Notes under the pieces: generated by a model
Database searches by the model: none
What the model was told of the DNA's origin: nothing
What the model saw: the letters and a program-made list of their open reading frames with translations, nothing else
Origin: a virus
DNA length: 35,744 nucleotides
Reading direction: 5' to 3' (one strand)
Virus record (IMG/VR): IMGVR_UViG_3300037311_000082
In this document: in pieces, positions 4,522 through 20,920 of the stretch
Layout: the number at the start of each line of letters is the position of its first letter
Position numbering within the stretch: the first letter of the stretch is position 1
Program-made: the position numbers and the translations under genes

Positions 4522-5003
4522 GCCACACCATCGAACGCGACTGGACCACTGCCGCCGGTCTGCGGGCCGTGTGCCTGCTGATTCACGGAATGCACCGCTG
4601 CGGCTATGTGGCCGTCGGCGCTGACCACCCGCTGCATGGCGTTGACTACAGCGCCCAAACGACCGTCCTGCCACCGCTGCCGGACGACGAGCCGATGGGC
4701 AAGCGGGGGATCATCCCGCTGATCTGCGCGGGCAGCGTGGAAGCCGCGAGCCAGCGGCCCGATTGCTACTTCGACGTTCACGGCGGGCTCACCTTCAGCG
4801 CCGGTGGCGGGAGGTATCCGGCCGAAGGGTCTGGCCTCTGGTGGTTTGGCTTCGACTGCGGCCACGCCGGCGACGGCAGCCTAAACGACTACATCGTCCG
4901 CAACGGCCTGAACGACGGCCCCGTGCGCGACGAGGAATACGTGGTGGCCGAGTGCGAGTCGCTGGCGCGTCAGCTTGCCGCCGTGGCTGGCGGTGCGTCG
5001 TGA
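4518..5003 (+). CDS. Hypothetical protein (161 aa)
   Basis: C-terminal part of listed ORF 4005..5003, from GTG 4518 (VSHTIERDWTTAAGL...WWFGFDCGHAGD...). Globular-looking composition. Coupled to both neighbours. Confidence 0.7.
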   Translation: MSHTIERDWTTAAGLRAVCLLIHGMHRCGYVAVGADHPLHGVDYSAQTTVLPPLPDDEPMGKRGIIPLICAGSVEAASQRPDCYFDVHGGLTFSAGGGRYPAEGSGLWWFGFDCGHAGDGSLNDYIVRNGLNDGPVRDEEYVVAECESLARQLAAVAGGAS

Positions 5004-5206
5004 GAACCCCGCTGTACCTGACGCCCGCCGAGCATGACCTCGTGCGCGGCCTCGCCGTCACCCACAGCCAGCGCCTCGGCGGGGAGCTGCGCACGCGCAC
5101 CGACCTGACGCCCGAGGGCCGCGCGCGCTACGTCGAGCAGCTCGACACCGTGCTCGGGCTGCTGCGCTCCATCCGGCAGGCGGAGGGCGAGACGTGCGCG
5201 ACCTGA
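5000..5206 (+). CDS. Hypothetical protein (68 aa)
   Basis: C-terminal part of listed ORF 4763..5206, from GTG 5000 (VRTPLYLTPAEHDLVRGL...). GTGA overlap with the upstream stop. Confidence 0.55.
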   Translation: MRTPLYLTPAEHDLVRGLAVTHSQRLGGELRTRTDLTPEGRARYVEQLDTVLGLLRSIRQAEGETCAT

Positions 5207-5322
5207 TCCTCGCCCTCTGCATCCTCGCCCTGCTGGCCCTGGTCGCGGCCCTCGCCGTGGCCGAGGCCGGCGAATCCGACTACCCCACCGCTGCAGAGTG
5301 GCAGCAGGAGATTGACCAGTGA
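5194..5322 (+). CDS. Small single-pass membrane protein (42 aa; below the ORF-track size cutoff)
   Basis: My own translation: VRDLILALCILALLALVAALAVAEAGESDYPTAAEWQQEIDQ*. The hydrophobic helix is followed by an acidic tail. Its stop overlaps the exonuclease start (GTGA). Confidence 0.45.
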   Translation: MRDLILALCILALLALVAALAVAEAGESDYPTAAEWQQEIDQ

Positions 5323-6230
5323 ACGCTGTTGCCGAGAAGTTCCCGAACCGCAACGAGTACCTCGGCTGCTCCGAGGTCGCCGCCGCCGTCGGCCTGAACC
5401 CGTGGCAGACGCCGCTCGACCTGTTCCTCGAGAAGACCGGCCAGGTGCCGCGCCCCGACCTGTCGCAGAAGGACAGCGTGCGCTTCGGCGAGCTGCTGGA
5501 GGACGTGGTCGCCGACGAGTTCGCGCGCCGCTCCGGGCTGGAGGTGCGGCGGGACTCCCGCGAGTTCGCGCACCCCGAGCTGCCGTTCCTTCGCGGGCAC
5601 ATCGACCGCCGCATCGTCGGCCGCCGCGCCGGGCTGGAGTGCAAGACGGCCGGCATCCGCATGGCCGCCGACTTCGGCGAGGCCGGGACCGACGAGGTGC
5701 CGCCGCACTACCTTGTGCAGTGCGCCGCCTACATGGCCGTCACCGGCTTCGACGAGTGGCACCTCGCGGTGCTGATCGCCGGCAACGACTTCCGCACCTA
5801 CCGCATCCCCCGCGATGAGGAGCTGATCGCCGGCATCGAGGCCCGGGCCCGGGCGTTCTGGGACGCCGTGCGGACCGGCCAGCCGCCGGCCGCCGTCACG
5901 GCCGCCGACGTGCGGGCGCTCTACAAGCAGGACGACGGCACCGAAGTCATCGCCACGCCCGAGGTCGCCGAGGCGTGCGCCAACCTCGCCGCTGCGAAGG
6001 CCCAGCTCAAGGCCGCCGAGGCGCTGGAGGAGCAGCTCGCCACCCAGGTGCAGTCCTTCATGGGGCCGCACGCCCGCCTGCTCGGCGCCGACGGCAAGCC
6101 GCTGGCGACGTGGACGACTGTCCGCAGCTCGCGCCTCGACGGCAAGCGGCTGGAGGCCGACCACCCTGAACTCGCGGCCCAGTACCGGGCCGATTCCGTG
6201 TCGCGCCGCTTCACCCTGAAGCTCAAGTAG
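5319..6230 (+). CDS. YqaJ-type viral recombinase exonuclease (lambda-Exo-like PD-(D/E)XK)
   Basis: Motifs LGCSEVAAAVGLNPWQTPLDLFLEKTG, GHIDRRI..GLECKTA and PPHYLVQCAAYMAVTG match the YqaJ domain pattern. It sits immediately upstream of RecT. Confidence 0.9.
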   Translation: MNAVAEKFPNRNEYLGCSEVAAAVGLNPWQTPLDLFLEKTGQVPRPDLSQKDSVRFGELLEDVVADEFARRSGLEVRRDSREFAHPELPFLRGHIDRRIVGRRAGLECKTAGIRMAADFGEAGTDEVPPHYLVQCAAYMAVTGFDEWHLAVLIAGNDFRTYRIPRDEELIAGIEARARAFWDAVRTGQPPAAVTAADVRALYKQDDGTEVIATPEVAEACANLAAAKAQLKAAEALEEQLATQVQSFMGPHARLLGADGKPLATWTTVRSSRLDGKRLEADHPELAAQYRADSVSRRFTLKLK

Positions 6231-6239
6231 GAGCCCACC

Positions 6240-6926
6240 ATGGCCGCCAATCCCGAAACCCTCCCCGTCCGGCAGTACGCCCTCGCCACGCTCGCCGAGC
6301 GGTTCGGCGTGAAGGCCGATGCGCTGTTCCTGTCGTCGCTCAAGTCGGTGGCCTTCAAGGCGCCGAACGCGAGCAACGAGCAGCTCCTCGCGCTGTGCGT
6401 CACCGCCAACCAGTACGGGCTCAACCCGTTCACGAAGGAGCTGTACGCCTTCCCCGACAAGGGCGGCGGCATCGTCCCCATCGTCAGCGTGGACGGCTGG
6501 AGCCGCATCCTCAACGACTCGCCGCAGTTCGACGGGCTCGACTTCGTGGAGGCCGAGGACGGCTCGTGGATCGAGTGCGTGATCTACCGGAAAGACCGTG
6601 CCCACCCGATCAAGGCCCGCGAGTACATGGCCGAGTGCCGCCGCGACACCGCGCCGTGGAAGTCGCACCCGCGCCGGATGCTCCGGCACAAGGCGATGAT
6701 CCAGGCGGCCCGCATGGCCTTCGGGTTCTCGGGCATCTATGACCCGGACGAGGGCGAGCGGATCGTGGCCGTGGAGCGTCCGGCGGCGCCGGCCGGCGCG
6801 ACCCAGACGGAGCGCGTGAAGGCGCTGCTCACCGAGCCCAGCCCGGCGCCCGAGCCCGCCGACCCCGGCGTGACGGACGGCGAGTGGCTGGAGGCTGCCG
6901 GCCTCGGGGACGGGGAGGCCGCATGA
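6240..6926 (+). CDS. recT: RecT/Bet-family single-strand annealing protein
   Basis: Motifs NQYGLNPFTKELYAFPDKGGGIVPIVSVDGWSRI and PWKSHPRRMLRHKAMIQAARMAFGFSG. It is paired with the YqaJ exonuclease. Confidence 0.9.
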   Translation: MAANPETLPVRQYALATLAERFGVKADALFLSSLKSVAFKAPNASNEQLLALCVTANQYGLNPFTKELYAFPDKGGGIVPIVSVDGWSRILNDSPQFDGLDFVEAEDGSWIECVIYRKDRAHPIKAREYMAECRRDTAPWKSHPRRMLRHKAMIQAARMAFGFSGIYDPDEGERIVAVERPAAPAGATQTERVKALLTEPSPAPEPADPGVTDGEWLEAAGLGDGEAA

Positions 6927-7105
6927 CCCCCGCCCTCTACCACCGCGAGCGCATCGCGTGCGTGGTGCTGTTCCGGGGCCCGCGCTTCTGCGTGGTCCGA
7001 TTCACCGACCAGCGGGGCCGGTTCCGGCACCTGCTGGGGGATGAGCGCCGGGTGCAGACGCGGTTCGTCCACGTCCTGCCGCCGGCGGGGAGGGTGGCGG
7101 CGTGA
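6923..7105 (+). CDS. Hypothetical protein (60 aa)
   Basis: Listed ORF 6884..7105, trimmed to ATG 6923 (ATGA overlap with the recT stop). Confidence 0.5.
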   Translation: MTPALYHRERIACVVLFRGPRFCVVRFTDQRGRFRHLLGDERRVQTRFVHVLPPAGRVAA

Positions 7106-7200
7106 GCCACGACAGCGACATCGCCGAGACGTGCGAGCTGATCCTCTGCACGCCGGAGGCCGAGGCCAGCATTCGGGGGATTGCCGATGACGACGCCTGA
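7102..7200 (+). CDS. Possible micro-ORF (32 aa)
   Basis: GTG 7102 (GTGA overlap) gives VSHDSDIAETCELILCTPEAEASIRGIADDDA*. The only support is its fit to the coupling pattern of the operon. Confidence 0.3.
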   Translation: MSHDSDIAETCELILCTPEAEASIRGIADDDA

Positions 7201-7312
7201 TATCGGCGACGGCTACGGCTACGGCTACGGCTCCGGCTACGGCTACGGCTACGGCTCCGGCTACGGCGACGGCTACGGCGCCGGCTACGGCGACGGCTAC
7301 GGCGACGGCTGA
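7187..7312 (+). CDS. Gly-Tyr repeat micro-ORF (41 aa): MTTPDIGDGYGYGYGSGYGYGYGSGYGDGYGAGYGDGYGDG
   Basis: My own translation from ATG 7187 to TGA 7310-7312. Gly occupies every second residue across 35 residues and there are 10 Tyr. It is followed by a 13-bp GC hairpin. It is below the ORF-track size cutoff. Confidence 0.45.
   Translation: MTTPDIGDGYGYGYGSGYGYGYGSGYGDGYGAGYGDGYGDG
7205..7309. repeat. Imperfect hexanucleotide tandem repeat (GGCTAC/GGCGAC/GGCTCC/GGCGCC), about 17.5 units
   Basis: Read directly: ggcgacggctacggctacggctacggctccggctac...ggcgacggc. Confidence 0.9.
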
Positions 7313-7320
7313 CCCACCCC

Positions 7321-7359
7321 GCAGCGCCTCGGCTCGCTCACCCCGGGCCGAGGCGCTGC
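7321..7359 (+). terminator. Strong GC hairpin (13-bp perfect stem, 13-nt loop), with no U-tract
   Basis: GCAGCGCCTCGGC (7321-7333) pairs with GCCGAGGCGCTGC (7347-7359). It lies between the Gly-Tyr micro-ORF and the lower-GC island. Confidence 0.4.
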
Positions 7360-7377
7360 CACCACAGGAGACGTGAG

Positions 7378-7575
7378 ATGCCACTGATAGGACTGCTTGC
7401 GCTGTTGATTGCCCTCGCTGCCGCAGCCGGTGTCGCCATCGGCTCGCTTCAATGCGGTCTTCGCTGGAATGAGTCTGGCATGGCGAACAAATACTCGGTG
7501 CTTGCAAACACCTGCTTTGTCGAAGCGCGCCCCGGCGTGTGGATTCCCGAAGAACGTTACAGGGAGACGCCATGA
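7378..7575 (+). CDS. Small membrane-anchored or secreted protein (65 aa)
   Basis: Listed ORF preceded by a good SD (ACAGGAGACGTGAG ATG). N-terminal hydrophobic segment MPLIGLLALLIALAAAAGVAIG and two Cys. Located in the lower-GC region. Confidence 0.7.
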   Translation: MPLIGLLALLIALAAAAGVAIGSLQCGLRWNESGMANKYSVLANTCFVEARPGVWIPEERYRETP

Positions 7576-8162
7576 ACGCAACCGAATGGGCCGAGAGGCT
7601 GGAGGCCCGACCTGTGCAGCGAACGAGGGCATGGTGCGCGAAGGCCGTGCCGCCCATTTTGAATGACGCAGTCATCGCCAGGTTCTGGCGCGACGTGCGT
7701 ATTTCCACCGATGACCAGTGCTGGGAATGGGCAGGAAGTCGGACCGCAAACGGGTACGGCAGGTTCTGGATTCTGCGCAGGGGGCATGCTGCCCACCGCA
7801 TCGCCTACGCCATAGCCAATGGCCCTGCGCCATCCAATCTGATGGTGTGCCACCACTGCGACAATCCTGCGTGCGTCAACCCCAGTCACTTGTTCTTGGG
7901 GACGGCGGCGGACAACGTGCATGACATGTTGAGGAAGGGGCGGAGGCCGCGACTGTTTGGATCAGCCAGTTCAAACGCGAAAGTTCATGAACGCGACGTT
8001 GAATCTATTCATGACCTGCGGTTGGCGGGGTGGACCCAATCAGCCATCGCCAGCCGTTTTGGCCTGAGCCAGCCGACTGTGTCGGAGATTCTGTCGGGTA
8101 AAAAGTGGCCCCATGTCGCCGCGGCAATCGAAGCCCGCCGCCGGGCCGAGGGAGGGGAGTGA
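7572..8162 (+). CDS. HNH homing-type endonuclease with C-terminal HTH domain (196 aa)
   Basis: Listed ORF 7539..8162, trimmed to ATG 7572 (SD GGGAG, ATGA overlap). Motifs CWEWAGSRTANGYGRF, AHRIAYAIANG and VCHHCDNPACVNPSHLFLGTAADNVHDM. C-terminal HTH: LAGWTQSAIASRFGLSQPTVSEILSGKKW. Confidence 0.9.
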   Translation: MNATEWAERLEARPVQRTRAWCAKAVPPILNDAVIARFWRDVRISTDDQCWEWAGSRTANGYGRFWILRRGHAAHRIAYAIANGPAPSNLMVCHHCDNPACVNPSHLFLGTAADNVHDMLRKGRRPRLFGSASSNAKVHERDVESIHDLRLAGWTQSAIASRFGLSQPTVSEILSGKKWPHVAAAIEARRRAEGGE

Positions 8163-8632
8163 TGGACCTGCCGCCGATCCCCACCGACGTGATGGAGCGA
8201 CTAGCTCTAGCCAGAGACATTGCGCTGCGATACCCAGTCGCGTACAGCGACGTAGATAACGGCGAACTTTACTGGGGCCTCTGTGCCGCGATAGTGGCGG
8301 TCGATAAGGCATTGGCCGAGCGCGACGCCCTGCGCGCCGAGGTCGGGCGGCTGAGTCGATTGGTGTACGAGATTGAGACGCGATGCGACCCCGCGGGCGA
8401 AACGCAAGAGCGTGTGCTGGCCGTAGAAACGGCTACCGCCGCACTCGCCGAAGCGCAGGAGTTGCGCGCCGAGAACGCCAAGCTGCGGGCGGCCCTTGAG
8501 GCGGCGCCGCTTCCGCTGGGCCTGCTTGAGCTGGATGGCAACGGCGACGTTGTTGCCGTCGTTGACCCGGAAGACCCCGACTACCACAACTGGTACATGA
8601 CCACCCGCGCGGAGGCCCTGCGCCGTGAGTGA
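8162..8632 (+). CDS. Hypothetical coiled-coil protein (156 aa)
   Basis: Listed ORF 8105..8632, trimmed to ATG 8162 (TGATG overlap with the HNH stop). The central region is heptad-like and Ala/Glu/Leu/Arg-rich. Confidence 0.65.
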   Translation: MDLPPIPTDVMERLALARDIALRYPVAYSDVDNGELYWGLCAAIVAVDKALAERDALRAEVGRLSRLVYEIETRCDPAGETQERVLAVETATAALAEAQELRAENAKLRAALEAAPLPLGLLELDGNGDVVAVVDPEDPDYHNWYMTTRAEALRRE

Positions 8633-8981
8633 CCTGACCGCCGAGGACTACGCCCGGGTCGCGGTGGCGATTGGGATGGAGAAGTACCAGAGCCTGCTGG
8701 ACGACCTGTGGTACTGGAAGGACCCAGCAGGGCCGCCGGCAACCTATCTCGGCGAGAACGGCGTGACTGCCGACCTCCCCGCCTACCTCGCCGAGCCGGC
8801 GCAGATGGTGAGGATCATGGAGGAACTCAAGGTCAGCGTGCGCTTCGACGTGGAACTGTGCCACTGGATCGCTGAGGCCCTGAATGCGACCGGCGAGGGC
8901 TGCCACTGGGTCCACGGCGTAGCGCAGGACAAGCCCGGGCTCGCGGTGCTGGACTGCGCGGCGCGGGCGCTGCGGCCGTGA
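8625..8981 (+). CDS. Hypothetical protein (118 aa)
   Basis: Listed ORF with balanced composition. Overlaps both neighbours by a few nt. Confidence 0.65.
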   Translation: MSDLTAEDYARVAVAIGMEKYQSLLDDLWYWKDPAGPPATYLGENGVTADLPAYLAEPAQMVRIMEELKVSVRFDVELCHWIAEALNATGEGCHWVHGVAQDKPGLAVLDCAARALRP

Positions 8982-9163
8982 ACTTGTCAGCAATGCTTAC
9001 ACGTTGGCTGCGGCGGTGGCTCCACAGCCTCGCGCACCGGCTGGGCTGGAACCACGGGCGCGTCTGGTCGATCACCGACAGCGACGGCAACGTGTGGATT
9101 GGCTTCGAGTGTGGCGGCTGCGGCAGCATCGACGACGTGCATAAGCGGGCGCTGCGGCCATGA
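8978..9163 (+). CDS. Hypothetical protein (61 aa)
   Basis: Listed ORF with a GTGA overlap at its start. Contains FECGGCGS. Confidence 0.5.
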   Translation: MNLSAMLTRWLRRWLHSLAHRLGWNHGRVWSITDSDGNVWIGFECGGCGSIDDVHKRALRP

Positions 9164-9336
9164 TCGAAATCCGCTGGACCAGAGACCCCGCCGAGCGTGC
9201 CGCAACCACCCGGACGGAAATCGTCGTGCGGCTCGTCAGCGAAGCCACCCTTGACGACGTGTTAGAGGCCGTCGGGGATTTTCTGATCGCCGCCGGCTAT
9301 TCGGCCGAGGGCGTCCGCGAGAGGCTGGGCGAGTGA
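9160..9336 (+). CDS. Hypothetical protein (58 aa; below the ORF-track cutoff)
   Basis: My own translation from ATG 9160 (ATGA overlap): MIEIRWTRDPAERAATTRTEIVVRLVSEATLDDVLEAVGDFLIAAGYSAEGVRERLGE*. Confidence 0.5.
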   Translation: MIEIRWTRDPAERAATTRTEIVVRLVSEATLDDVLEAVGDFLIAAGYSAEGVRERLGE

Positions 9337-9355
9337 TCGTCACCCAGGAACAGCC

Positions 9356-9739
9356 GTGACCGACACGCTCACCATCGCCGAAGCCGCCGAGCTGCTCCAC
9401 CTGCACCCGGACACCGTGCAGGCCCGCGCCGCCGCTGGCATCATCCCCGGCTACCGGCCGGGACGCCGGTGGGTGTTCCTCAGGGACGAGCTGCTGGCCT
9501 ACCTGAGGTCGACCGCCCCATGCTCTACAAGCGCCCCGATTCGCCCTTCTGGTGGGTCCGGTTCACCGTCGGTGGACGCCGAGTTAGATGCTCTGCTGAG
9601 ACGGCCAGCCGGCGCGAGGCGGAGGCGTTTGCGCATCGTCTCCGGGAGCGGGAATGGCGGCGCAGCAAGACCGGCGAGCGCACGTGGGCCGAAGCCTGCG
9701 TCCGCTGGCTCCGCGAGCACCAGCACAAGCGAAGCCTAG
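9356..9739 (+). CDS. xis: Excisionase-family / MerR-like HTH DNA-binding protein (the functional domain is roughly the first 55 aa)
   Basis: LTIAEAAELLHLHPDTVQARAAAGIIPGYRPGRRWVFLRDELLAYL matches the excisionase-type HTH pattern. It sits directly upstream of int. The frame stays open for 220 nt into int and encodes a low-complexity tail. Confidence 0.6.
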   Translation: MTDTLTIAEAAELLHLHPDTVQARAAAGIIPGYRPGRRWVFLRDELLAYLRSTAPCSTSAPIRPSGGSGSPSVDAELDALLRRPAGARRRRLRIVSGSGNGGAARPASARGPKPASAGSASTSTSEA

Positions 9740-10536
9740 ACCGGGACCAGGCCGTCATCGCGTGGAGCCGGGACCACCTCGGCGACGCCTTCCTCGCCGA
9801 CCTGGACCGCGACCGCCTGACCGCCCTGCGGGCCCTGCGGACCGGGGGCCCGGCCACCGTGAACCGGGACATGGCCGTCGTCCGCGCCATCCTGAATGCC
9901 GCCGTGGACTGGGGCTGGCTGCCAGCCGCACCCAAGGTGCCCATGGCGACCACCACCAGAGAGGACCCGCGCTGGCTGACCCGGGAGGAGTTCTCGGCCC
10001 TGCTCGGGCACCTGCCCGGCCACACCCGGCAGCTCGCGCGCTTCGCCGTCGCCACCGGGCTGCGCCGGGCCAACATCACGGGCCTGCGGTGGTCCCACGT
10101 GGACCTCGGGAGGCGGCATCTCGCAATCCCCGGGCGACTTTCGAAGTCCGGCCGCCCCATCCCCGTGCCCCTGAACGCCGACGCGCTCAGGGTGCTTCTG
10201 GTGCAGCGGCGCGTGACCCGGGAGCGGGTCCGCCGGGGCATCCCGTGGGTGTTCCCGTACCGCGACGAGCCGCAGTCCCAGGTCGCGACGGCGGCGTGGC
10301 GGCGCGCGGTCAAGGCCATCGGCCGCGAGGGCTTCCGCTTTCACGACCTCCGCCACACGTGGGCGAGCTGGCACGTGCAGGCCGGGACGCCGCTGCACGC
10401 CCTCCAGGCTCTGGGCGGCTGGTCGACGCTGGCGATGGTGCAGCGCTACGGGCACCTGGACAGCGCCTCGCTGCGGAGCTACGCCGACGCGGTGGGGCAC
10501 GTATCTGGCACGCGGGCCCGGAGGCGGTCGGCGTAA
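9520..10536 (+). CDS. int: Tyrosine integrase (338 aa)
   Basis: Listed ORF 9469..10536, trimmed to MLYKRPDSPFWWVRFTVGGRRVRCS (typical N-terminus). Catalytic signatures: ATGLRRANITGLRW, HDLRHTWASWHVQAG and GGWSTLAMVQRYGHL. Confidence 0.93.
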   Translation: MLYKRPDSPFWWVRFTVGGRRVRCSAETASRREAEAFAHRLREREWRRSKTGERTWAEACVRWLREHQHKRSLDRDQAVIAWSRDHLGDAFLADLDRDRLTALRALRTGGPATVNRDMAVVRAILNAAVDWGWLPAAPKVPMATTTREDPRWLTREEFSALLGHLPGHTRQLARFAVATGLRRANITGLRWSHVDLGRRHLAIPGRLSKSGRPIPVPLNADALRVLLVQRRVTRERVRRGIPWVFPYRDEPQSQVATAAWRRAVKAIGREGFRFHDLRHTWASWHVQAGTPLHALQALGGWSTLAMVQRYGHLDSASLRSYADAVGHVSGTRARRRSA

Positions 10537-13575: not shown

Positions 13576-15101
13576 GGCAGCGGGACTCCCTGCTGGAAGG
13601 GGAAGGGGATGGCCGAGTAGTCGATGACCACCTCGTCATAGAACTGCCGCATGACGGGCCGGTAGCCGACCTCGGACGGCTGGTTCGTCGGGTAGTTCAT
13701 GAAGCTGATGAGGTTGACGCCCGGCAGGCTGCCGCCGAGGCTGGTCTTCGTGAAGGAGCCCGGGCCGCTGACGGCCACGCCGAGGTTCCAGATGCGCTTC
13801 GGCGGCTGCCCGCGGGGAGCGGCCCAGCAGATGGCGACGTCGCCGCCCGCGCTCGGCACCATGTTGATGTAGAACTCGAAGACCATCCACACCAGCGGCG
13901 TGAAGGGCACGGCGCCGGAGAGCAGCGCGTCGGGGTTCGGCACGGGGAAGCCGCGCGCGTCGGCGTAGTTGGCGGCGGCGTTGGTGCCGATGTACGGCAG
14001 CGGCTCGCGGGCCACGCGGATGTGCCGGCTCGGGCCGAAGACGCGGTTGGCCTCGACGTTCGTCGTGAAGGGCTGCGCCGTGTAGATGGCGTTCTGGTAG
14101 AACCAGTCGTTGTCGCGGCCACCGCTGCCGGCGAGGTAGCGCTCGACGCCGCCAGAGCCGTCGGTGAAGAAGCCCGGGAAGCCGAGCAGCTTGGGCACGT
14201 AGAGCGCGATCTGCCCGCCACCCGTGGTGTCGGTGACGTTGATCGTCATGAGCTTCTGGCCGTCGTCGGTGTTCGTCCGCCGCCAGAAGAGCGCCGCCCG
14301 GTCCAGGGCGATCTCGACCTGGAAGTAGAAGTTGTTCATCCGCGTCGGCGGACGGAAGCTCCAGTTGCCGCCGTTCTGCCCGGCGCGGTCGAAGGTGCGA
14401 ATCTCCAGGCACTTCCCGCCGGAGAGCACCGGGGGCCCGCCGGGGTCGCCACGGTAGAGCTTGTACTCGGCATCGAGCGAGCCGCCCGGCGGCTGGGCCG
14501 CGATGGCGCCCGCCGCGGCCAGTTCGGCGTCGGTGCCGTACTCGGAGAAGTTGAAGGCCATGACGCGGCCCGCCGAGCGCAGCAGCCAGTCGGCCTCGTC
14601 GTCCACCGTGCCGCCACCCCCACCACCAGCGGGCACGACACCGCGGATGATCGGCCGGAAGCGCAGCTCCCGGGCATCGGTCGCTACCGCCACGGGCGTG
14701 CCGTCGTCGACCAGGCGCAGCGCGTTCGCCACCATGCTGCCGGTGGTGCCGGGCGGCAGGATGCGGGTGATGGGGTCGCCGGCCGGCGTCGTCGTCGCCA
14801 GCTCCACGGACTCCACCTCCCAGCCCGGCGGCGGCACGTAGTTCTGCAGGATGGCGACGTCGGTGGTGCCGGGGGCGTTGGATTCCAGCGTGTACGGCGT
14901 GAACTCCAGCCACGAGCCCAGCGCCTCGGGCTGCACGGGCGGCAGCTCGGGGAGCGGCAGCGGCTCGGCCTCCACGAGGCCCGACGCCGTGCCCATGATC
15001 GTGTGCCCGTTGCCGGTGCCGCCGGGGATCGGGTTGAGCTGCGGCTCGAACTCCGTGTTACCGACGGTCTGGCCGCGGCCGGGGGCAGGAGGGTATGGCA
15101 T
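13572..15101 (-). CDS. Tail fibre/spike protein 2 (509 aa) with a conserved N-terminal anchor and a jelly-roll-like C-terminal domain (possible depolymerase)
   Basis: The N-terminus MPYPPAPGRGQTVGNTEFEPQLNPIPGGTGNGHTIMGTA is homologous to the N-terminus of ORF 16515..17363. The C-terminal region (..VWMVFEFYINM..ICWAAP..FMNYPTN..RQFYDEVVIDY) resembles lectin/lyase jelly-rolls (recalled from memory). Confidence 0.65.
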   Translation of the reverse strand: MPYPPAPGRGQTVGNTEFEPQLNPIPGGTGNGHTIMGTASGLVEAEPLPLPELPPVQPEALGSWLEFTPYTLESNAPGTTDVAILQNYVPPPGWEVESVELATTTPAGDPITRILPPGTTGSMVANALRLVDDGTPVAVATDARELRFRPIIRGVVPAGGGGGGTVDDEADWLLRSAGRVMAFNFSEYGTDAELAAAGAIAAQPPGGSLDAEYKLYRGDPGGPPVLSGGKCLEIRTFDRAGQNGGNWSFRPPTRMNNFYFQVEIALDRAALFWRRTNTDDGQKLMTINVTDTTGGGQIALYVPKLLGFPGFFTDGSGGVERYLAGSGGRDNDWFYQNAIYTAQPFTTNVEANRVFGPSRHIRVAREPLPYIGTNAAANYADARGFPVPNPDALLSGAVPFTPLVWMVFEFYINMVPSAGGDVAICWAAPRGQPPKRIWNLGVAVSGPGSFTKTSLGGSLPGVNLISFMNYPTNQPSEVGYRPVMRQFYDEVVIDYSAIPFPFQQGVPLP

Positions 15102-15104
15102 GGC

Positions 15105-16511
15105 CTACCTCGGGGCCCGCCAGGCGCGGGTTCGGGGCGTGCGCCGGACCACGCCGCGGACCTCGTCGAGGGTCTGGTACTTGCTCGGCTGCACGTACCA
15201 GAAGGGCGCGAAGAGCGGGTCCCCCATGGGGGCCTGCAGCGAGAGGGACGCATCGTAGTAAGCGGCCTCGAGCGGCGTCATGCCGGCGAGCAGGAGGTAG
15301 AGCAGCGACCAGCTCGTGGCCGGCGAGGCGGCCGTGCGGTGGGTCACGTCGGTGACGCCCCACGCGGCGCCACGCTGAAGGGAGCGCAGGCTGTACTGGA
15401 AGCCGCCGGAGAGCCCGCCGAGGTACGCGCCGCCGCCCCGCGTGGGCTGGATGGCGTTGGTGTACGGCGCCGTCGTCAGGGGGTTCTCGTTGTCGGAGCA
15501 GTCGTAATGCACCATCGCGGGGTAGCCGACGACGGCCCCGCTGTCGAAGTCGGGGTCCGTGAAGGCCTCATCGGGGCCACCCGCCGGGCACAGCGTCGCG
15601 GCGAGCCCGCTCGGCGCCTGCCGCCAGAAGTACTTGGCCCAGAAGCCCCACTCCTTGAGGCGCGTGTACATGGACGCGCTCGTCGCGAGGTAGCCGCTGA
15701 ACTCGCGGACGCCGACGAGGATGGGCCCGCTCTGCACGTCCTGGCCGTAGGCGGCATCCGCGGCGTCGGTCGCGCCGAGGGCGTTGGCGGCCGTCTCGAG
15801 GCCATCGGCCGAGGTCCAGCCCGTGTACCCGATGCGGCCGGCAGGGATGACCGGGGAGCCCGCCGACAGGGTCTGCGTGGCGAGCACGGTCGCCAGCCGG
15901 GTGTTCGTGGCCGTGGGCCCGAAGAGGTCGGAGAGCTGCGTGACCGGCGACATGGTGGCGTCATTGCCAACGCCGAGGAAGTCCCACACGAAGCCGTTCC
16001 AGAGCGGGGTCGGCGGGACAAGGTTGGCAACCGGCGTGCCCGACCACCGCACGTTGGTGACGGTGGGGTCGGCGGTGACGGCCAGGAAGCCGCCGCGCGC
16101 CGCCACGCGGGCCGCGAAGCTCCGCGCCCCCGCGGCGAGCAGGGCCAGCGGCGCATTCGCGGTGGCCGTCGGGGCGAGATAGCCCGTGCCCTGCACAAAG
16201 ACGCCGCGCACGACGATGCCGTTGGGGCAGCCCGGCGCGATGAGCACGCCGACTGCCCCGACCTGCGCGTACTTCGCCGCCAGCGGGTCGACGATGGCGG
16301 TACTGATCGCCGCGTTGTCGCCCGGGTCGAAGGCCACGTCCGACGTGCCCAGCGACAGCGGGATGATGTTGGCGAGCGGAATCCCGCGCCGGCGGCAGTA
16401 GGCCTCCGCCGCCGGCACGGAATAGGCCTCGCTGCTGTTGGCGAGGACGACGAGCCGCTTCCGGTCGATGGGCCGGAAGTCGAACGTCCGCGGGTGGCCG
16501 ACGACGGGCAC
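15105..16511 (-). CDS. Tail-module protein of unknown function (468 aa); possibly a TIGR03790-family-like enzyme
   Basis: Listed ORF. LVVLANSSEAYSVPAAEAYCRRRGIPLANIIPL near the N-terminus and GDPLFAPFW near the C-terminus resemble, from memory, the uncharacterized exosortase-associated TIGR03790 family. It lies between the two fibre genes. Confidence 0.55.
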   Translation of the reverse strand: MPVVGHPRTFDFRPIDRKRLVVLANSSEAYSVPAAEAYCRRRGIPLANIIPLSLGTSDVAFDPGDNAAISTAIVDPLAAKYAQVGAVGVLIAPGCPNGIVVRGVFVQGTGYLAPTATANAPLALLAAGARSFAARVAARGGFLAVTADPTVTNVRWSGTPVANLVPPTPLWNGFVWDFLGVGNDATMSPVTQLSDLFGPTATNTRLATVLATQTLSAGSPVIPAGRIGYTGWTSADGLETAANALGATDAADAAYGQDVQSGPILVGVREFSGYLATSASMYTRLKEWGFWAKYFWRQAPSGLAATLCPAGGPDEAFTDPDFDSGAVVGYPAMVHYDCSDNENPLTTAPYTNAIQPTRGGGAYLGGLSGGFQYSLRSLQRGAAWGVTDVTHRTAASPATSWSLLYLLLAGMTPLEAAYYDASLSLQAPMGDPLFAPFWYVQPSKYQTLDEVRGVVRRTPRTRAWRAPR

Positions 16512-16514
16512 GGG

Positions 16515-17363
16515 TTATGTCGCGTCCGTCACGCTGCCCGTGAGGGTCCACGTCCCGGTGCCGTCGCCCTGGTTGAAGCCGTCGTTCCAACCCTGCGCCG
16601 TGTTGCCGGCCATGGCGTCGGCCTGCTGGGTGTCGCCGAAGCCGATGGCGGGGCGGCCCGTGGGGTTCGACAGGTTGGTGCCGAGGTTCTTCGCCGGGAA
16701 GAAGGCCGCGGGGTCGGTGATGAGCTGGCCGAAGTCGAACCATGCCAGCCCGAGGCGGCCCGTCATCCGCTGGATGCCGCCCGGCGTGCCGCCGATGCTC
16801 CACGCCGTCGGCGCCGGCATATCGGCGGTGCCGAGCAGCGCGCCCACGACAGTCTGCGGCTGGCCGTTGAGCCACGCCTGCAGCAGGTTGGGGTTCGACC
16901 GGATGGCGACGTGCAGCACGTAGTCGTTGCCGGGCACGATGCCACCCGCGGGCACGATGGTCGCGCCGGCCACGCCGGCATTCGAGAAGTTGGTCGGCGA
17001 GTTGAGGGTTACGCTGCCGTCGACGTTGACGTTGAACAGCCCCAGCGGGGCGCTGCTGGTCTGGCCGATGAGCGTCTGCAACGTCGCCAGCGAGGTCAGG
17101 CGAAACGCCACGGCGGCCGTCATCGAGCCGTTCGCGGCCAGCCCGAGGTTCGTGGCGTTGCTGAGCTGCGTGGAGCCGTTGAACGCCACCTGCCGGTAGG
17201 CGTAGGCGTAGGGGTCCATGGGCGCGCCGATCATGCCGAGATCGTTCGCCGTGCCGCGGATCGTGTGGGCATTGCCCACGCCGCCGGGGATTCCAAGCCG
17301 CTGCGTCTCCAACGCCGTCCCCGGCGTCGTCTGGCCGCGCGCGTTCGCACTCGGGTAAGGCAT
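16515..17363 (-). CDS. Tail fibre protein 1 (282 aa): conserved N-terminal anchor plus LamG/concanavalin-like lectin domain
   Basis: N-terminus MPYPSANARGQTTPGTALETQRLGIPGGVGNAHTIRGTA. The remainder has a LamG-like pattern (..MTAAVAFRLTS..LFNVNVDGSVTL..YVLHVAIRSN..AWLNGQP..GRLGLAWFDFG). Confidence 0.65.
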   Translation of the reverse strand: MPYPSANARGQTTPGTALETQRLGIPGGVGNAHTIRGTANDLGMIGAPMDPYAYAYRQVAFNGSTQLSNATNLGLAANGSMTAAVAFRLTSLATLQTLIGQTSSAPLGLFNVNVDGSVTLNSPTNFSNAGVAGATIVPAGGIVPGNDYVLHVAIRSNPNLLQAWLNGQPQTVVGALLGTADMPAPTAWSIGGTPGGIQRMTGRLGLAWFDFGQLITDPAAFFPAKNLGTNLSNPTGRPAIGFGDTQQADAMAGNTAQGWNDGFNQGDGTGTWTLTGSVTDAT

Positions 17364-17378
17364 TGTCGTCTCTCCTGG

Positions 17379-20165
17379 TTAGAACCGTGGTACGCCGCCG
17401 GCGCGCTGCTGACGCTCGCGCTCCCGGCCCTGCTCGATGAATGCCGGCGGGGGCGACACCGGCCGCACGTTGGCCTGCCCCTCCAGCACCGCCTGCTCGA
17501 TCTGCACGCGGTAGCGCTCGATGAACGTCGCGCGCCCCGCGGCCATGCCCTGCGTGAGCGCCGCCGACAGGATGTCGCCCCGCGTGAAGGCGCCCTCCGC
17601 GGCCTGCGCGCCCCCGATGGGCGCCTTCCGGTACTCGCCGGCACCGATCACCGACTTGACGGCCTTGCGCCGCTCGGCGCCCACCGCCTGCCGGTACTCG
17701 TGGCACGCCCAGCCCGGGCCCTTGCCGGTGTCCAGCGCGTGCAGGTCCACCGCGACGCCATCAACCGAGAACTCGCAGCCCACCGCCGACGGCGCCACGC
17801 CGTTCTGCGCGAGCGCATAGGTCGCGTCGTCGTCCTTGTACCGGGCCATGAAGAACGGGCTCACCATGTCGGGGCCGATGTAGTCCTGCCCCTGCAGGGG
17901 CTCGCCCCAGAAGTCGAGCTTCGGCGGCAGGTCCTCGTAGAAGTCCGGGATGGGGATCGTGCTGCGCACGTAGGCGGCGGCGTTCTCCAGCGGCCCGCCG
18001 ACCTGCGTCTCGCGCGGCACGCCGTCCACCTCCTGCGTCACCGTCCGCAGCAGCGAGGAGTACGGCACGAAAGACTGCGCGAGCCGGCCGAGGAAGTTCG
18101 TGCTCCCGCCGCTCTGCGCCGCCGACATGGCGTCCATGAGGTCGGACAGCCCGGTGAGCATGGTCTTGTCCTGCATCACCTCGGCGAGCGCCGCCGTCAT
18201 CACGACCAGGATGTGCTCGCGCTGCTTGTCGCTGGTCGCATAGCGGTAGGCGTCCGCCATCTCGGCAATCGAGGCCAGCGGCGTGGCAATCGGGTCCATG
18301 CGCTGGTAGCTCAGGGCGCCCTCGGGGCCGCCGAGGATGTAGGGCTTCCAGCCGAGCTTCTCGTAGACCTTGCGGAGCTGCGGGTTCGGCGGGCCGGAGC
18401 CGGACAGGCTGCCGTCCATGGTCGCGCTGATCGCCCACACCGCCACCGCCGAGCCCAGCACGGCCCGCGCCATGGCCTCGTCGCGCTTCGCCCCACCGGC
18501 CTGCACCGACCGCCAGAAGTTCGGCGCCGTGAAGAAGATGGGCGAGCGCTCGACCGCGTAGCTCAGGATGTTGGCCGGCGTCCGGTAGAACGGCACGATG
18601 AGCCGGAACGTCGGGCTTGCCCGGTGCATCGACGCCAGGCCCTTGCCGAAGTCGCTGGCGATGTCGTCGGTGAAGGTCTGGTAGCGCGCGAAGTCCAGCG
18701 ACTGCCGGTAGATGTCCTGGAAGGTGCGCTCCTCCGCCGACAGCCGGCCGGCGAACTCAAGGGCGAGGTCATCGCCCGTCAGGCCGTCGGCGCCGAGCTT
18801 CTCCAGCAGCTTCTCCTGGTTGGGGCCGGCGAGAATCTCCTCGATGCGGGCGCCGATGGCCTTGCCGTCGGTGAGCCCCTCCTGCCGGGCGACGCGGTAG
18901 GCGAGCGCCCGCGCCTGCTGGTTGAAGGCGAGGGTCTTGTAGAACTCGTCGGCCGCCGTCAGGGCCCGGCCCGGGGCGCTCACGAAGGACGCCGCGTAGT
19001 CGTAGGCCGTCGCCATGGGGCTGTCGTGCGGCAGGCCGTACTTGCTGGCGCTCTCCACGGCGCCGCCCGCGCTCTCGACCTTCGTGCCGCCGAAGACGCT
19101 GTCCCCGGTCTTCGCGGCCTTGCCGGCGAGGCGCAGCGCGTCGGTGAGGTTCATCACGTCGCCGTAGAACATCTCGGCGACTTCCTGCGGGAACACCTGC
19201 CCGGAGCCCACCGTCTGGCTGATGACGCCGGCCAGCGCTCGCTCGGGCATCGACAGCACGTTGACCACCGCGTTGCTCGCCGCGTTGACGACGTGGGTCC
19301 GCGGCCCCGAGAGCAGCGACATGGTCCGGTAGTAGACGAGCTTCTCCGCGGCCCGGCCCAGCCAGCCGACGGAGCCCGCCTTCTTGCTGGCCTCCTCCAC
19401 GGTCTTGGCGCGGCCGATGGTCACCGCCTTCTGAAAGATGGCATCGGGCCCGCCGCCGAGTCGCGCGGCCTCGAAGATGGCCTGAGGGTCGAGCCGGTCG
19501 GGCACCGCCTTCAGGGCGTTCAGCGCCCGCGCCGTGTCCCGGGTCGCGCCCTGCACCGACGACTGCAGCGCGATGTGCCGGTACAGCGCCCGCTGGTACT
19601 CCACGAGGTCGAGGTCGGACACCCCGCCCCGGCCTCGGGTCTCAAGCTGCCGGCCCCACTCCTGCAGGTTCTCGGCGCTCGCCACCATGAGCTGCCGGGC
19701 CTTCGTAAGCTGGGCGTCGTTCAGCGTCTGCCCGGGCTTCCGCTTCATGAGCATGCCGAGCATGGTCCGGTCGTCGATGGCCGCCGCCTCCTCGCGGACC
19801 GTGGCGAGGTTGCGCGGCTTGTAGCCGGCGTTCTGGGTCGCGATGCTGACGGCGTCGAGGACCTGGTCGACGCCATCCGGGGTGTCGAGCCGGTCGAGGT
19901 TGATGTTCCGGTACGGGGTCCGCGGGTCGCCGAGCGGCTGCGGGGCCGTCTGCCGGCCGAGGACGGCGGCGGCGTCGGAGGCCGAGGCCAGCGGGGCGCC
20001 CGCCGGGGTCTGGCCGGCCTCCACCATGCGCTCGGTGGCCGTGGGCGCGGGGGCCTGCGGCGGCGGGGTGGCCTCGGGCGGCGGGGCGTCCGGCGGAGCC
20101 GCGCCCTCCGGCTTCACCGGCGGCGGCTCGGGCTTGCGGAGGGTCGGGCGGGGGATGCGGGCCAT
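17379..20165 (-). CDS. Large internal virion / DNA-ejection-type protein (928 aa; positional analogue of T7 gp16)
   Basis: Listed ORF 17379..20807, trimmed to MARIPRPTLRK (ATG 20165, TAATG overlap). The upstream 214 codons are Arg-rich and overlap the real gene 20165..20920. Size and position, between the tail tube and the fibres, support the call. Confidence 0.6.
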   Translation of the reverse strand: MARIPRPTLRKPEPPPVKPEGAAPPDAPPPEATPPPQAPAPTATERMVEAGQTPAGAPLASASDAAAVLGRQTAPQPLGDPRTPYRNINLDRLDTPDGVDQVLDAVSIATQNAGYKPRNLATVREEAAAIDDRTMLGMLMKRKPGQTLNDAQLTKARQLMVASAENLQEWGRQLETRGRGGVSDLDLVEYQRALYRHIALQSSVQGATRDTARALNALKAVPDRLDPQAIFEAARLGGGPDAIFQKAVTIGRAKTVEEASKKAGSVGWLGRAAEKLVYYRTMSLLSGPRTHVVNAASNAVVNVLSMPERALAGVISQTVGSGQVFPQEVAEMFYGDVMNLTDALRLAGKAAKTGDSVFGGTKVESAGGAVESASKYGLPHDSPMATAYDYAASFVSAPGRALTAADEFYKTLAFNQQARALAYRVARQEGLTDGKAIGARIEEILAGPNQEKLLEKLGADGLTGDDLALEFAGRLSAEERTFQDIYRQSLDFARYQTFTDDIASDFGKGLASMHRASPTFRLIVPFYRTPANILSYAVERSPIFFTAPNFWRSVQAGGAKRDEAMARAVLGSAVAVWAISATMDGSLSGSGPPNPQLRKVYEKLGWKPYILGGPEGALSYQRMDPIATPLASIAEMADAYRYATSDKQREHILVVMTAALAEVMQDKTMLTGLSDLMDAMSAAQSGGSTNFLGRLAQSFVPYSSLLRTVTQEVDGVPRETQVGGPLENAAAYVRSTIPIPDFYEDLPPKLDFWGEPLQGQDYIGPDMVSPFFMARYKDDDATYALAQNGVAPSAVGCEFSVDGVAVDLHALDTGKGPGWACHEYRQAVGAERRKAVKSVIGAGEYRKAPIGGAQAAEGAFTRGDILSAALTQGMAAGRATFIERYRVQIEQAVLEGQANVRPVSPPPAFIEQGRERERQQRAGGVPRF

Positions 20166-20920
20166 TACGGGCTCCCGGCCGGGGCAGGCGCGGCGGCCTC
20201 CGCCGGCGGCTTCTTGAGCGCGGTCACGAAGTCCCCCGCCATGTCGGGCCAGCGCCGAAGCCCCGCCCGCACGCCGCGGAACACCGGGGCGAGCAGGCCG
20301 AGGCCGGCACCCTCCACGGCCGCCCGCAGGCTGGCGTCGAACTCGTCGTCGGCCAGCTCGCCGGACAGCGACTGCGTCAGCAGGTTGTCGATGCCGAGCC
20401 CGCGCGCCACGTCGGCGAGCGTCCCGGTCTTGTTCTCGAACGCCATCATGTCGGCGAAGGCGCCCGCCCCCATCTCGCCGAGGATCGTCGAGCCGCCCAG
20501 GGACGCCACGGCGGGGCCGTACAGCGTGAGGAAGGTCGTGAGGCCCCGCGCCATGCCGCCGGGCAGGCCCTCCTGCCGGGGGCCCTCGGGCAGCATCCGG
20601 CCCGACGGCAGGTCGCGGAACACCTGCATGGGCTGGCCGTAGAAGCCAGCGCCGCCGCCCGTAACCCGGGAGACGACTTCGTTGGCCGCCCCGCCTGCCT
20701 TGCGGGTCAGGGTGTCGATGGCGTCCACGGGGCCCATAAGCGCTCCCGTGACAACGTCGCGGACCGTGGTGCTGGCGGCGTCCACGGCCTCTGGCGAGAA
20801 GCCCCACGCCGGGGCCGGGCCGGCCGGAGCCTTCTGCCGCGCCGCCGCCGCCATGTCGGCCTGCGCCGCCTCGGTGTACGGGCGGGACCGGATGCGCTCG
20901 AAGTAGGTCTGCTCGGCCAT
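20165..20920 (-). CDS. Internal virion-type protein (251 aa)
   Basis: Listed ORF with balanced composition, coupled to both neighbours. Function is inferred from position only. Confidence 0.55.
   Translation of the reverse strand: MAEQTYFERIRSRPYTEAAQADMAAAARQKAPAGPAPAWGFSPEAVDAASTTVRDVVTGALMGPVDAIDTLTRKAGGAANEVVSRVTGGGAGFYGQPMQVFRDLPSGRMLPEGPRQEGLPGGMARGLTTFLTLYGPAVASLGGSTILGEMGAGAFADMMAFENKTGTLADVARGLGIDNLLTQSLSGELADDEFDASLRAAVEGAGLGLLAPVFRGVRAGLRRWPDMAGDFVTALKKPPAEAAAPAPAGSP

Follow-up and report, generated by a model that had tools for sequence, protein, structure and literature searches.

A short Gly-Tyr repeat gene and the putative remnant of its Sm-like partner in the recombination region of a temperate phage

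Background

The closest described counterparts of the locus analysed here are gene pairs of cultured phages. In Ralstonia phage NK-7 the DUF6948 gene XCO36016.1 is followed by XCO36015.1, annotated as 'fibroin heavy chain-like protein'. In Iodobacter phage PhiPLPE an 81-aa Gly-X ORF is found between gp84 and an HNH endonuclease gene, with RecE and Bet genes nearby. In Pectobacterium phage Ymer the pair WCD42788.1/WCD42787.1 is located near Erf and SSB genes. Apart from the fibroin label of NK-7, the members of these pairs are annotated only as hypothetical, and the PhiPLPE repeat ORF (L301:1164-1409 in EU876853.1), which overlaps the end of gp84, is unannotated in the GenBank record. No paper on DUF6948 or on Gly-X repeat proteins was found in the literature that could be searched.

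More distant parallels are provided by proteins of cellular organisms and by synthetic peptides. Flexible tails extend from the Sm-fold core of several proteins: the C-terminal domain of Escherichia coli Hfq is acidic, Acinetobacter Hfq has a Gly-rich repeat tail, and SmD1 and SmD3 have Gly-Arg tails. Chains in which small residues alternate with Tyr, as the [G/S]Y[G/S] domains of the FUS family and (X-Tyr)n peptides, are known to self-associate. Prion-inspired synthetic (X-Tyr)n peptides include GYGYGYG, NYNYNYN and SYSYSYS (PMC8163036, PMC11093263), and the self-assembly of GYGYGYG heptapeptides into fibrillar architectures is described (PMC8163036). The high glycine-tyrosine keratin-associated proteins (PF11759) have a similar Gly/Tyr-rich composition, but belong to an unrelated lineage and setting.

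The window analysed here is a whole contig of 35,744 bases (IMGVR_UViG_3300037311_000082), corresponding to a temperate podovirus-like phage that encodes terminase, head-tail adaptor, internal virion protein, tail protein, methyltransferase and integrase. It hosts a short Gly-X ORF which shares with the NK-7, PhiPLPE and Ymer pairs the strict alternation of Gly with Tyr, Asp and Ser, a short leader and a single-codon GGC-NNC array. The start codon lies 14 nt inside an upstream ORF whose C-terminus matches the C-terminus of DUF6948, and the locus is similarly placed in an early/recombination region, with an HNH endonuclease gene nearby as in PhiPLPE. In contrast to these pairs, the Sm-like gene is represented in the window by its last strand and helix only, and no intact partner is found in the phage.

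As in Hfq, Sm and LSm proteins with disordered tails, an Sm-fold core is combined in the phage family with a flexible, Gly-rich and often acidic chain, and one natural fusion, described below, reproduces the one-chain layout. The phage tail, however, is normally encoded by a separate, overlapping gene, and is made of Tyr, Asp, Ser and Asn rather than of Gly-Arg or GGFGGQ units; in the window, moreover, the Sm core is missing. The resemblance to FUS-family domains and (X-Tyr)n peptides, which also alternate small residues and Tyr, is one of composition only: the phage chains are strongly acidic, Asp occupying about one quarter of the X positions, are far more regular, and span 40-150 aa.

The Gly-Tyr ORF and the hexanucleotide array

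The ORF is located at residues 7187-7312 of the plus strand (ATG at 7187, TGA at 7310-7312) and encodes 41 aa; the TTG at 7181 is an alternative start, which would give a product of 43 aa. A Shine-Dalgarno-like GGGGGA, noticed by reading the sequence, is found at 7175-7180 (plus strand), 6 nt 5' of the ATG, and the ATG in turn lies 14 nt within an upstream 32-aa ORF (orf32, 7102-7200). A leader of 6 residues is followed by 35 residues in which Gly alternates, forming 17 Gly-X pairs with Tyr (10), Asp (4), Ser (2) and Ala (1) at the X positions. The peptide has five Asp and no basic residues. Codon usage is uniform: Gly is always encoded by GGC, Tyr by TAC, Asp by GAC, Ser by TCC and Ala by GCC. 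The underlying hexanucleotide GGC-NNC array (7204-7310, plus strand) includes 17.8 copies with 85% matches, and its TRF score (158) is the highest of the window. The original prediction had described the ORF in these same terms, as a product of a hexanucleotide tandem repeat, with 41 aa, Gly at every second position over 35 residues, 10 Tyr, D, S or A at the remaining positions, and a start 14 nt inside the preceding micro-ORF, and the sequence bears it out in full.

The ORF had been left uncalled by the gene callers behind the protein collection. An identical 41-aa sequence is present in the Atlas, where the nearest clusters are unnamed viral proteins of 30-56 aa. A phmmer-type search with the peptide gave no match at E 0.01; at E 10 only compositional family members were retrieved, and the leader of the window peptide was found in none of them. 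The match to keratin-associated proteins (KRTAP, Pfam PF11759), at 19.0 bits, is below the gathering cut-off of 21.1, and reflects composition only.

Coding frame of the array

The GGCTAC array is stop-free in five of the six frames, and an open Gly-X frame is therefore weak evidence if taken alone. GC3, by contrast with the remaining frames, is 1.0 across the array in the Gly-X frame only. Values of 0.95-1.0 track the frame of the 60-aa ORF described below (orf60) up to ~7100, the frame of orf32 up to ~7190, and then the Gly-X frame (1.0); the remaining frames and the antisense AVAV frame stay at ~0.5-0.6. The AVAVAV stretch is part of a 354-aa minus-strand ORF (6737-7801), and with a GC3 of ~50%, against 0.88-0.96 in the real genes of this phage, is an artefact, as the original prediction had stated. 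This ORF and a 2206-aa plus-strand ORF (14022-20642) are both high-GC artefacts; a filter based on GC by codon position picks neither of them, and over 14022-20642 selects genes on the opposite strand.

Further information is provided by the family to which the ORF belongs. Ser codons come from two unrelated families (TCC 90%, AGC 10%, among the matches listed). His (CAC) fills 0.8% of the X positions, despite being one base away from TAC, GAC and AAC. Globular domains run on in the Gly-X frame past the array in several members (e.g. L125, L109, L171 and L139). GC3, the presence of two Ser codon families, the depletion of His and the in-frame domain fusions rule out the frames that would read Ala-Thr, Leu-Arg or, on the antisense strand, Val-Ala; the Gly-X frame is the coding frame of the array. 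In the window phage the ORF may be translated, possibly by coupling.

A large family of Gly-X proteins

The family was sampled by searching viral contigs for one exact 21-mer of the array (3.5 copies of GGCTAC), which matches at least 120 contigs. Among the matches listed, nearly all sit in small ORFs in the Gly-X frame, with a median of 90 aa, short leaders, and leader and tail motifs that recur. In the same set, the X positions are occupied by Tyr (42%), Asp (23%), Ser (17%) and Asn (12%), and the codons used are GGC for 97% of Gly, TAC for 99% of Tyr and TCC for 90% of Ser, figures which the GC-rich seed biases towards GGC/TAC arrays. In the arrays of loci L100-L219, C-ending codons make up 80-100% even where the flanks have 32-39% GC, resulting in GC-rich islands, partly as a sampling effect of the exact GGCTAC seed. 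The codons of the X residues are nearly all one-base neighbours (TAC, GAC, AAC, TCC), CAC being nearly absent.

The window ORF shares with these proteins the strict Gly-X alternation, the choice of Tyr, Asp and Ser as X residues, the short leader and the near codon-invariant GGC-NNC array, and truly belongs to this large family of small phage proteins. Its leader has 6 aa, the family median being 10 aa. It differs in having 17 dipeptides only, against a median ORF of 90 aa among the matches listed. Since members of 39-49 aa are found elsewhere, shortness alone is no proof of decay. The original prediction had advocated a search for (GY)n micro-ORFs in other phage recombination modules, and they do recur in phage recombination and early regions; exo, RecT or SSB genes are found in the flanks of about 20 of 120 loci among the matches listed. 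Variation in copy number, also anticipated, is documented for arrays of the same kind: between loci L157 and L186 the two flanks show 100% and 99% identity, but the array measures 126 nt in the former and 288 nt in the latter, an in-frame change in copy number.

PHROGs contains no family corresponding to Gly-X repeat proteins or to the domains fused to them, and matches to the Pfam families TrAA12 and SGP were discarded as compositional. Larger proteins that include the array have three layouts. The array may be placed between the leader and a C-terminal domain of ~150 aa (IKSFN..YRIDGV..GN.AHG), may precede a domain with the motif W.S...G.PSNGG, or may follow an N-terminal domain with the motif D.GAC.DGV. 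The corresponding loci are listed in three groups (L109, L125, L138, L139, L170, L171 and L200; L127, L174 and L196; L111, L157, L186, L122, L159, L163 and L206), and the representatives L125, L174 and L186 gave no real match to either Pfam or PHROGs. Tandem runs of two to four paralogous Gly-X genes, with subtype-specific conserved ends, are found at L102, L131, L194, L183, L120, L179 and L166. At L131 and L194 the conserved ends are MKYPKG...AYPY.LVTR, and the upstream neighbour is a 351-aa ORF, not an Sm-like gene.

The Sm-like partner gene

Upstream sequences were sufficient for 110 repeat ORFs among the matches listed. A partner gene, belonging to one of four families (A-D), is found within 120 nt upstream of 86 of them, and behind a tandem paralog in 5 more; none is detectable in the remaining 19, and for this reason some repeat proteins may work alone. 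Families B and C match Pfam DUF6948 at E values of 5e-20 to 5e-32, and the four families are linked by hhalign (A-D 98%, C-B 99%, A-B 87%). In 66 of 70 pairs the start of the repeat gene overlaps the end of the partner gene by 1-19 nt, the median leader being 10 aa long. Partners encoded in one piece measure 95-100 aa. The AF2 model of the L200 partner has a pLDDT of 97.6, and the top matches listed in a Foldseek search of the PDB with this model are almost all Sm/LSm chains (6ppn_H, 1i5l and 1i8f among others), with probability 1.00 and TM scores of 0.5-0.7; the DUF6948 partner is accordingly modelled as an Sm/LSm barrel.

At locus L118 a single ORF (4963-5622) encodes both a DUF6948 domain (Pfam E 1e-22, residues 38-119) and a C-terminal Gly-X tail of ~90 residues. 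This natural fusion is a Rosetta-stone hint that DUF6948 and Gly-X products function as a unit. The same locus has a further Gly-X ORF, which stands alone, at 5737-6033. Gly-X genes beside Sm-like genes are thus widespread, being found in well over 100 viral contigs from one exact-word scan, and in cultured phages as well.

Genes upstream of the repeat ORF

The Gly-Tyr ORF is preceded in the window by a chain of overlapping genes, in the order exo, recT, orf60 and orf32, and is followed by a hairpin and a segment of lower GC3. The chain begins with a YqaJ/RecE-like recombination exonuclease (5319-6230, plus strand; Pfam YqaJ E 2.5e-29, phrog_434 E 3.8e-88), with GC of 0.74/0.47/0.96 at the three codon positions. 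Next is a RecT/Bet-type single-strand annealing protein (6240-6926, plus strand; Pfam RecT E 3.9e-27, phrog_252 E 2.3e-71), whose stop overlaps the start of orf60 (ATGA). The original prediction had placed the repeat in a chain of overlapping genes as a coding-type ORF, and its location after exo and recT fits that description. When RecT was used to look for close relatives, identity reached 71-72% at best in the viral, genome and metagenome collections; none of ~180 RecT loci carries a Gly-Tyr array after RecT, which indicates that the array does not belong to that module. A RecT of more than 90% identity is represented by P0008.

orf60 (6923-7105, plus strand; GC3 0.95-0.97 in its own frame) encodes a conserved, Arg-rich protein of 60 aa. 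Four other variants, 87-93% identical and 57-60 aa long (P0001, P0004, P0005 and P0006), were found on ~17 further contigs, the longest of 38.8 kb; P0004-P0006 reveal that close relatives of the window phage exist. A search of viral contigs retrieved no relative, and no fused, longer form was found among 1.84 billion representatives. orf60 is a real conserved gene, which stands alone in the relatives; in the window it fills the position of the first two-thirds of the partner. By sequence comparison it is not detectably DUF6948: hhalign gave a probability of 8.7%, with residues 20-39 placed on the beta1-beta2 region. The AF2 model has a pLDDT of 58 and shows three strands followed by a helix; a fold search with this low-confidence model gave no PDB match. 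With 12 Arg among its 60 residues the protein is strongly basic, whereas the Gly-Tyr peptide that it adjoins is acidic; it occurs only within a narrow clade of related contigs. A recent frameshift in a single Sm-like gene was considered and rejected, as every orf60 relative ends at 57-60 aa, no fused form is known, and the switch in GC3 coincides with the ORF boundary.

orf32 (7102-7200, plus strand) encodes 32 aa, and partner HMMs recognise in it only beta5 and the last helix of the DUF6948 partner. Its GTG start overlaps the orf60 stop (GTGA), GGAGG is found 8 nt upstream, and GC3 is 0.93. Residues 6-27 align to positions 75/76-96 of the 101-position HMM with a score of 12.8 bits, where 500 shuffles reached 4.7 at most, and orf32 is the best match to the partner HMM among 625 six-frame segments of the window (E 0.0086). 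In the comparison to the L200 partner, 11 of 21 residues are identical, and the local score is 55, against a 95th percentile of 38 in the shuffled-query null. The overlap of 14 nt with the repeat ORF is within the 1-19 nt of the family, but the upstream ORF has 32 aa only, matching positions 76-96 of the HMM. Judging from these alignments, orf32 is the putative surviving 3' end, amounting to the last 21 or so codons, of an Sm-like partner gene. Such a remnant is unique to the window among 13 partner-less loci.

The rest of the partner was not found. Neither an intact partner nor a second match to the partner families is present in any of the six frames of the 35.7-kb phage, and the conserved core RRxWxW/GA is absent in every frame of the window. 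The full five-strand Sm-like barrel, with its VIVR..aGVf.G and aRR.W.W.GA core, is recognisable in neither orf60 nor orf32, and a Pfam search with the two proteins gave nothing, even at E 10.

Origin and role of the cassette

In the standard cassette the start of the repeat gene overlaps the 3' end of a ~95-aa Sm/LSm-fold (DUF6948) gene, and the two products presumably cooperate. The Gly-X gene of the window is best viewed, with a confidence somewhat above even, as a 5'-truncated version of this cassette located after exo-recT, probably a leftover whose function is reduced or lost. Most economically, exo-recT-orf60 would have been joined to the 3' part of a standard cassette at a mosaic junction lying within the Sm-like gene, so that the last ~21 codons of the partner (now orf32) remain, together with the terminal hairpin and a shortened repeat gene of 17 dipeptides. 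The arrays of the family, almost codon-invariant GGC-NNC hexamer repeats, grow and shrink in 6-nt steps. The repeat ORF is intact, and its translation by coupling could still take place; we infer that loss of function of the window copy is most likely. This explanation is preferred because no intact partner is found anywhere in the genome. The clean coding-type GC3 and the good start signals of orf32 and orf60 count against it, since they also fit a functional split arrangement.

The latter is the main competing view, and we consider it rather unlikely. It holds that orf60 (beta-meander) and orf32 (beta5 and helix) replace together the one-piece Sm-like protein, or that the 41-aa peptide needs no ring to work, and that selection maintains the three coupled micro-genes as a functional unit. 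The change of GC3 from frame to frame falls cleanly on the ORF boundaries, and each of the three ORFs has a value above 0.9, as real genes do. The overlaps (ATGA, GTGA, 14 nt) suit coupled translation, and each is accompanied by a ribosome-binding site. At a combined 92 aa, orf60 and orf32 nearly equal a one-piece partner (95-100 aa) in length, the three strands and helix of the orf60 model follow the order of the first half of DUF6948, hhalign places orf60 on beta1-beta2, and repeat proteins of 39-49 aa occur in the family. The hhalign probability of that placement is however only 8.7%, and the HMM score of orf32 is not raised by the addition of orf60; the low-confidence orf60 model (pLDDT 58) retrieves no Sm fold, the RRxWxW/GA core is missing in every frame, and the GC3 of a recently dead gene would still look coding. 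Two other explanations were considered. That the array is a DNA-level element (a slippage-prone simple repeat, a set of protein-binding iterons or a recombination hotspot), open by chance, may be suggested by the five stop-free frames, by the failure of gene callers to report the ORF, and by a codon usage so near to invariance (GGC 97%, TAC 99%), even in phages of 32-39% GC, as to resemble homogenisation at the DNA level. It is very improbable, given the in-frame fusions to globular domains and to DUF6948, the conservation of leaders and start-stop overlaps, the two Ser codon families and the depletion of His, the GC3 of 1.0 confined to the Gly-X frame, and the annotated, translated-looking homologues of cultured phages. 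Still less credit is given to a secreted or modified bioactive peptide, be it a Gly/Tyr-rich antimicrobial, as the original prediction had contemplated, a microcin-like product or a RiPP precursor. The product is small and Gly-rich, and the sub-threshold KRTAP match (19 bits against 21.1) is a matter of composition; but it is acidic rather than cationic, and lacks Cys, signal peptide and leader-cleavage motif. The neighbours are exo, RecT, orf60, a 65-aa membrane ORF, HNH-HTH and integrase, and no modifying enzyme, transporter or immunity gene is found among the annotated flanks (5319-6230, 6240-6926 and 7378-10536). The constant neighbour of the family is a gene for an Sm-like, nucleic-acid-binding fold in early regions, the setting is that of intracellular early genes, and the antimicrobial idea has found no support.

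As to the role of the family, the leading, and most likely, hypothesis is that of a separately encoded tail for an Sm-like ring. The acidic, Tyr-rich, disordered chain would be supplied early in infection, and would modulate the binding of the ring to ssDNA or RNA, or to partner proteins. This mechanism is suggested by the constant pairing, by the natural fusion, by the Sm fold and by the recurring position by recombination genes. Such a position, common to the window, PhiPLPE and Ymer, is a pointer to where function may be sought. On chemical grounds, self-assembly, condensate formation and Tyr cross-linking of the Gly-Tyr peptide, all envisaged in the original prediction, are plausible. A more ambitious proposal, for which we see only a slim chance, is that the Gly-X chain is a hypervariable, detachable ring tail acting on ssDNA or RNA in early recombination/replication, where it might mimic nucleic acids through its acidic and aromatic character or form a scaffold, and that it survives here as a working three-piece split made of orf60, orf32 and the 41-aa peptide. 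If true, the split would show the minimal parts needed.

What is new here is that the partner gene is not intact in the window; the family and the pair are otherwise unstudied. The window provides a natural dissection of the cassette: the Sm core is gone, and immediately behind exo-recT there remain the terminal strand and helix of the partner and the repeat gene. Should relatives have preserved this arrangement, it would reveal what a partner must supply to the repeat protein; should they have lost it, it would document the decay of a cassette.

Sequences flanking the cassette

A GC-rich hairpin of 16 bp (7321-7359, plus strand), marking a module boundary, follows the repeat ORF. Residues 7321-7336 pair with 7344-7359 across a 7-nt loop; the stem includes one G-U pair and a perfect Watson-Crick run of 13 bp, corresponding to the 13-bp GC hairpin that had been predicted after the ORF. 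The 81-nt segment 7305-7385 has an MFE of -39.9 kcal/mol (z = -3.9), equalled by none of 200 shuffles. No U-tract is found after the stem, and a terminator scan gave no call, so the hairpin is not a canonical terminator; it is possibly a U-less terminator or an RNA-stabilising stem.

Directly 3' of the hairpin, GC3 falls from ~0.95 to 0.62-0.76 in a segment (7360-8630) that includes a 65-aa membrane-type ORF (7378-7575), an HNH + HTH endonuclease gene (7572-8162) and a 156-aa ORF. This segment appears to have been acquired separately, as a mosaic piece. An HNH endonuclease gene is also found right after the Gly-X ORF in Iodobacter phage PhiPLPE, and ~500 nt downstream at L111. Farther along, the integrase gene (9469-10536) begins within a small ORF (9356-9739), the N-terminus of which has an excisionase-like HTH.
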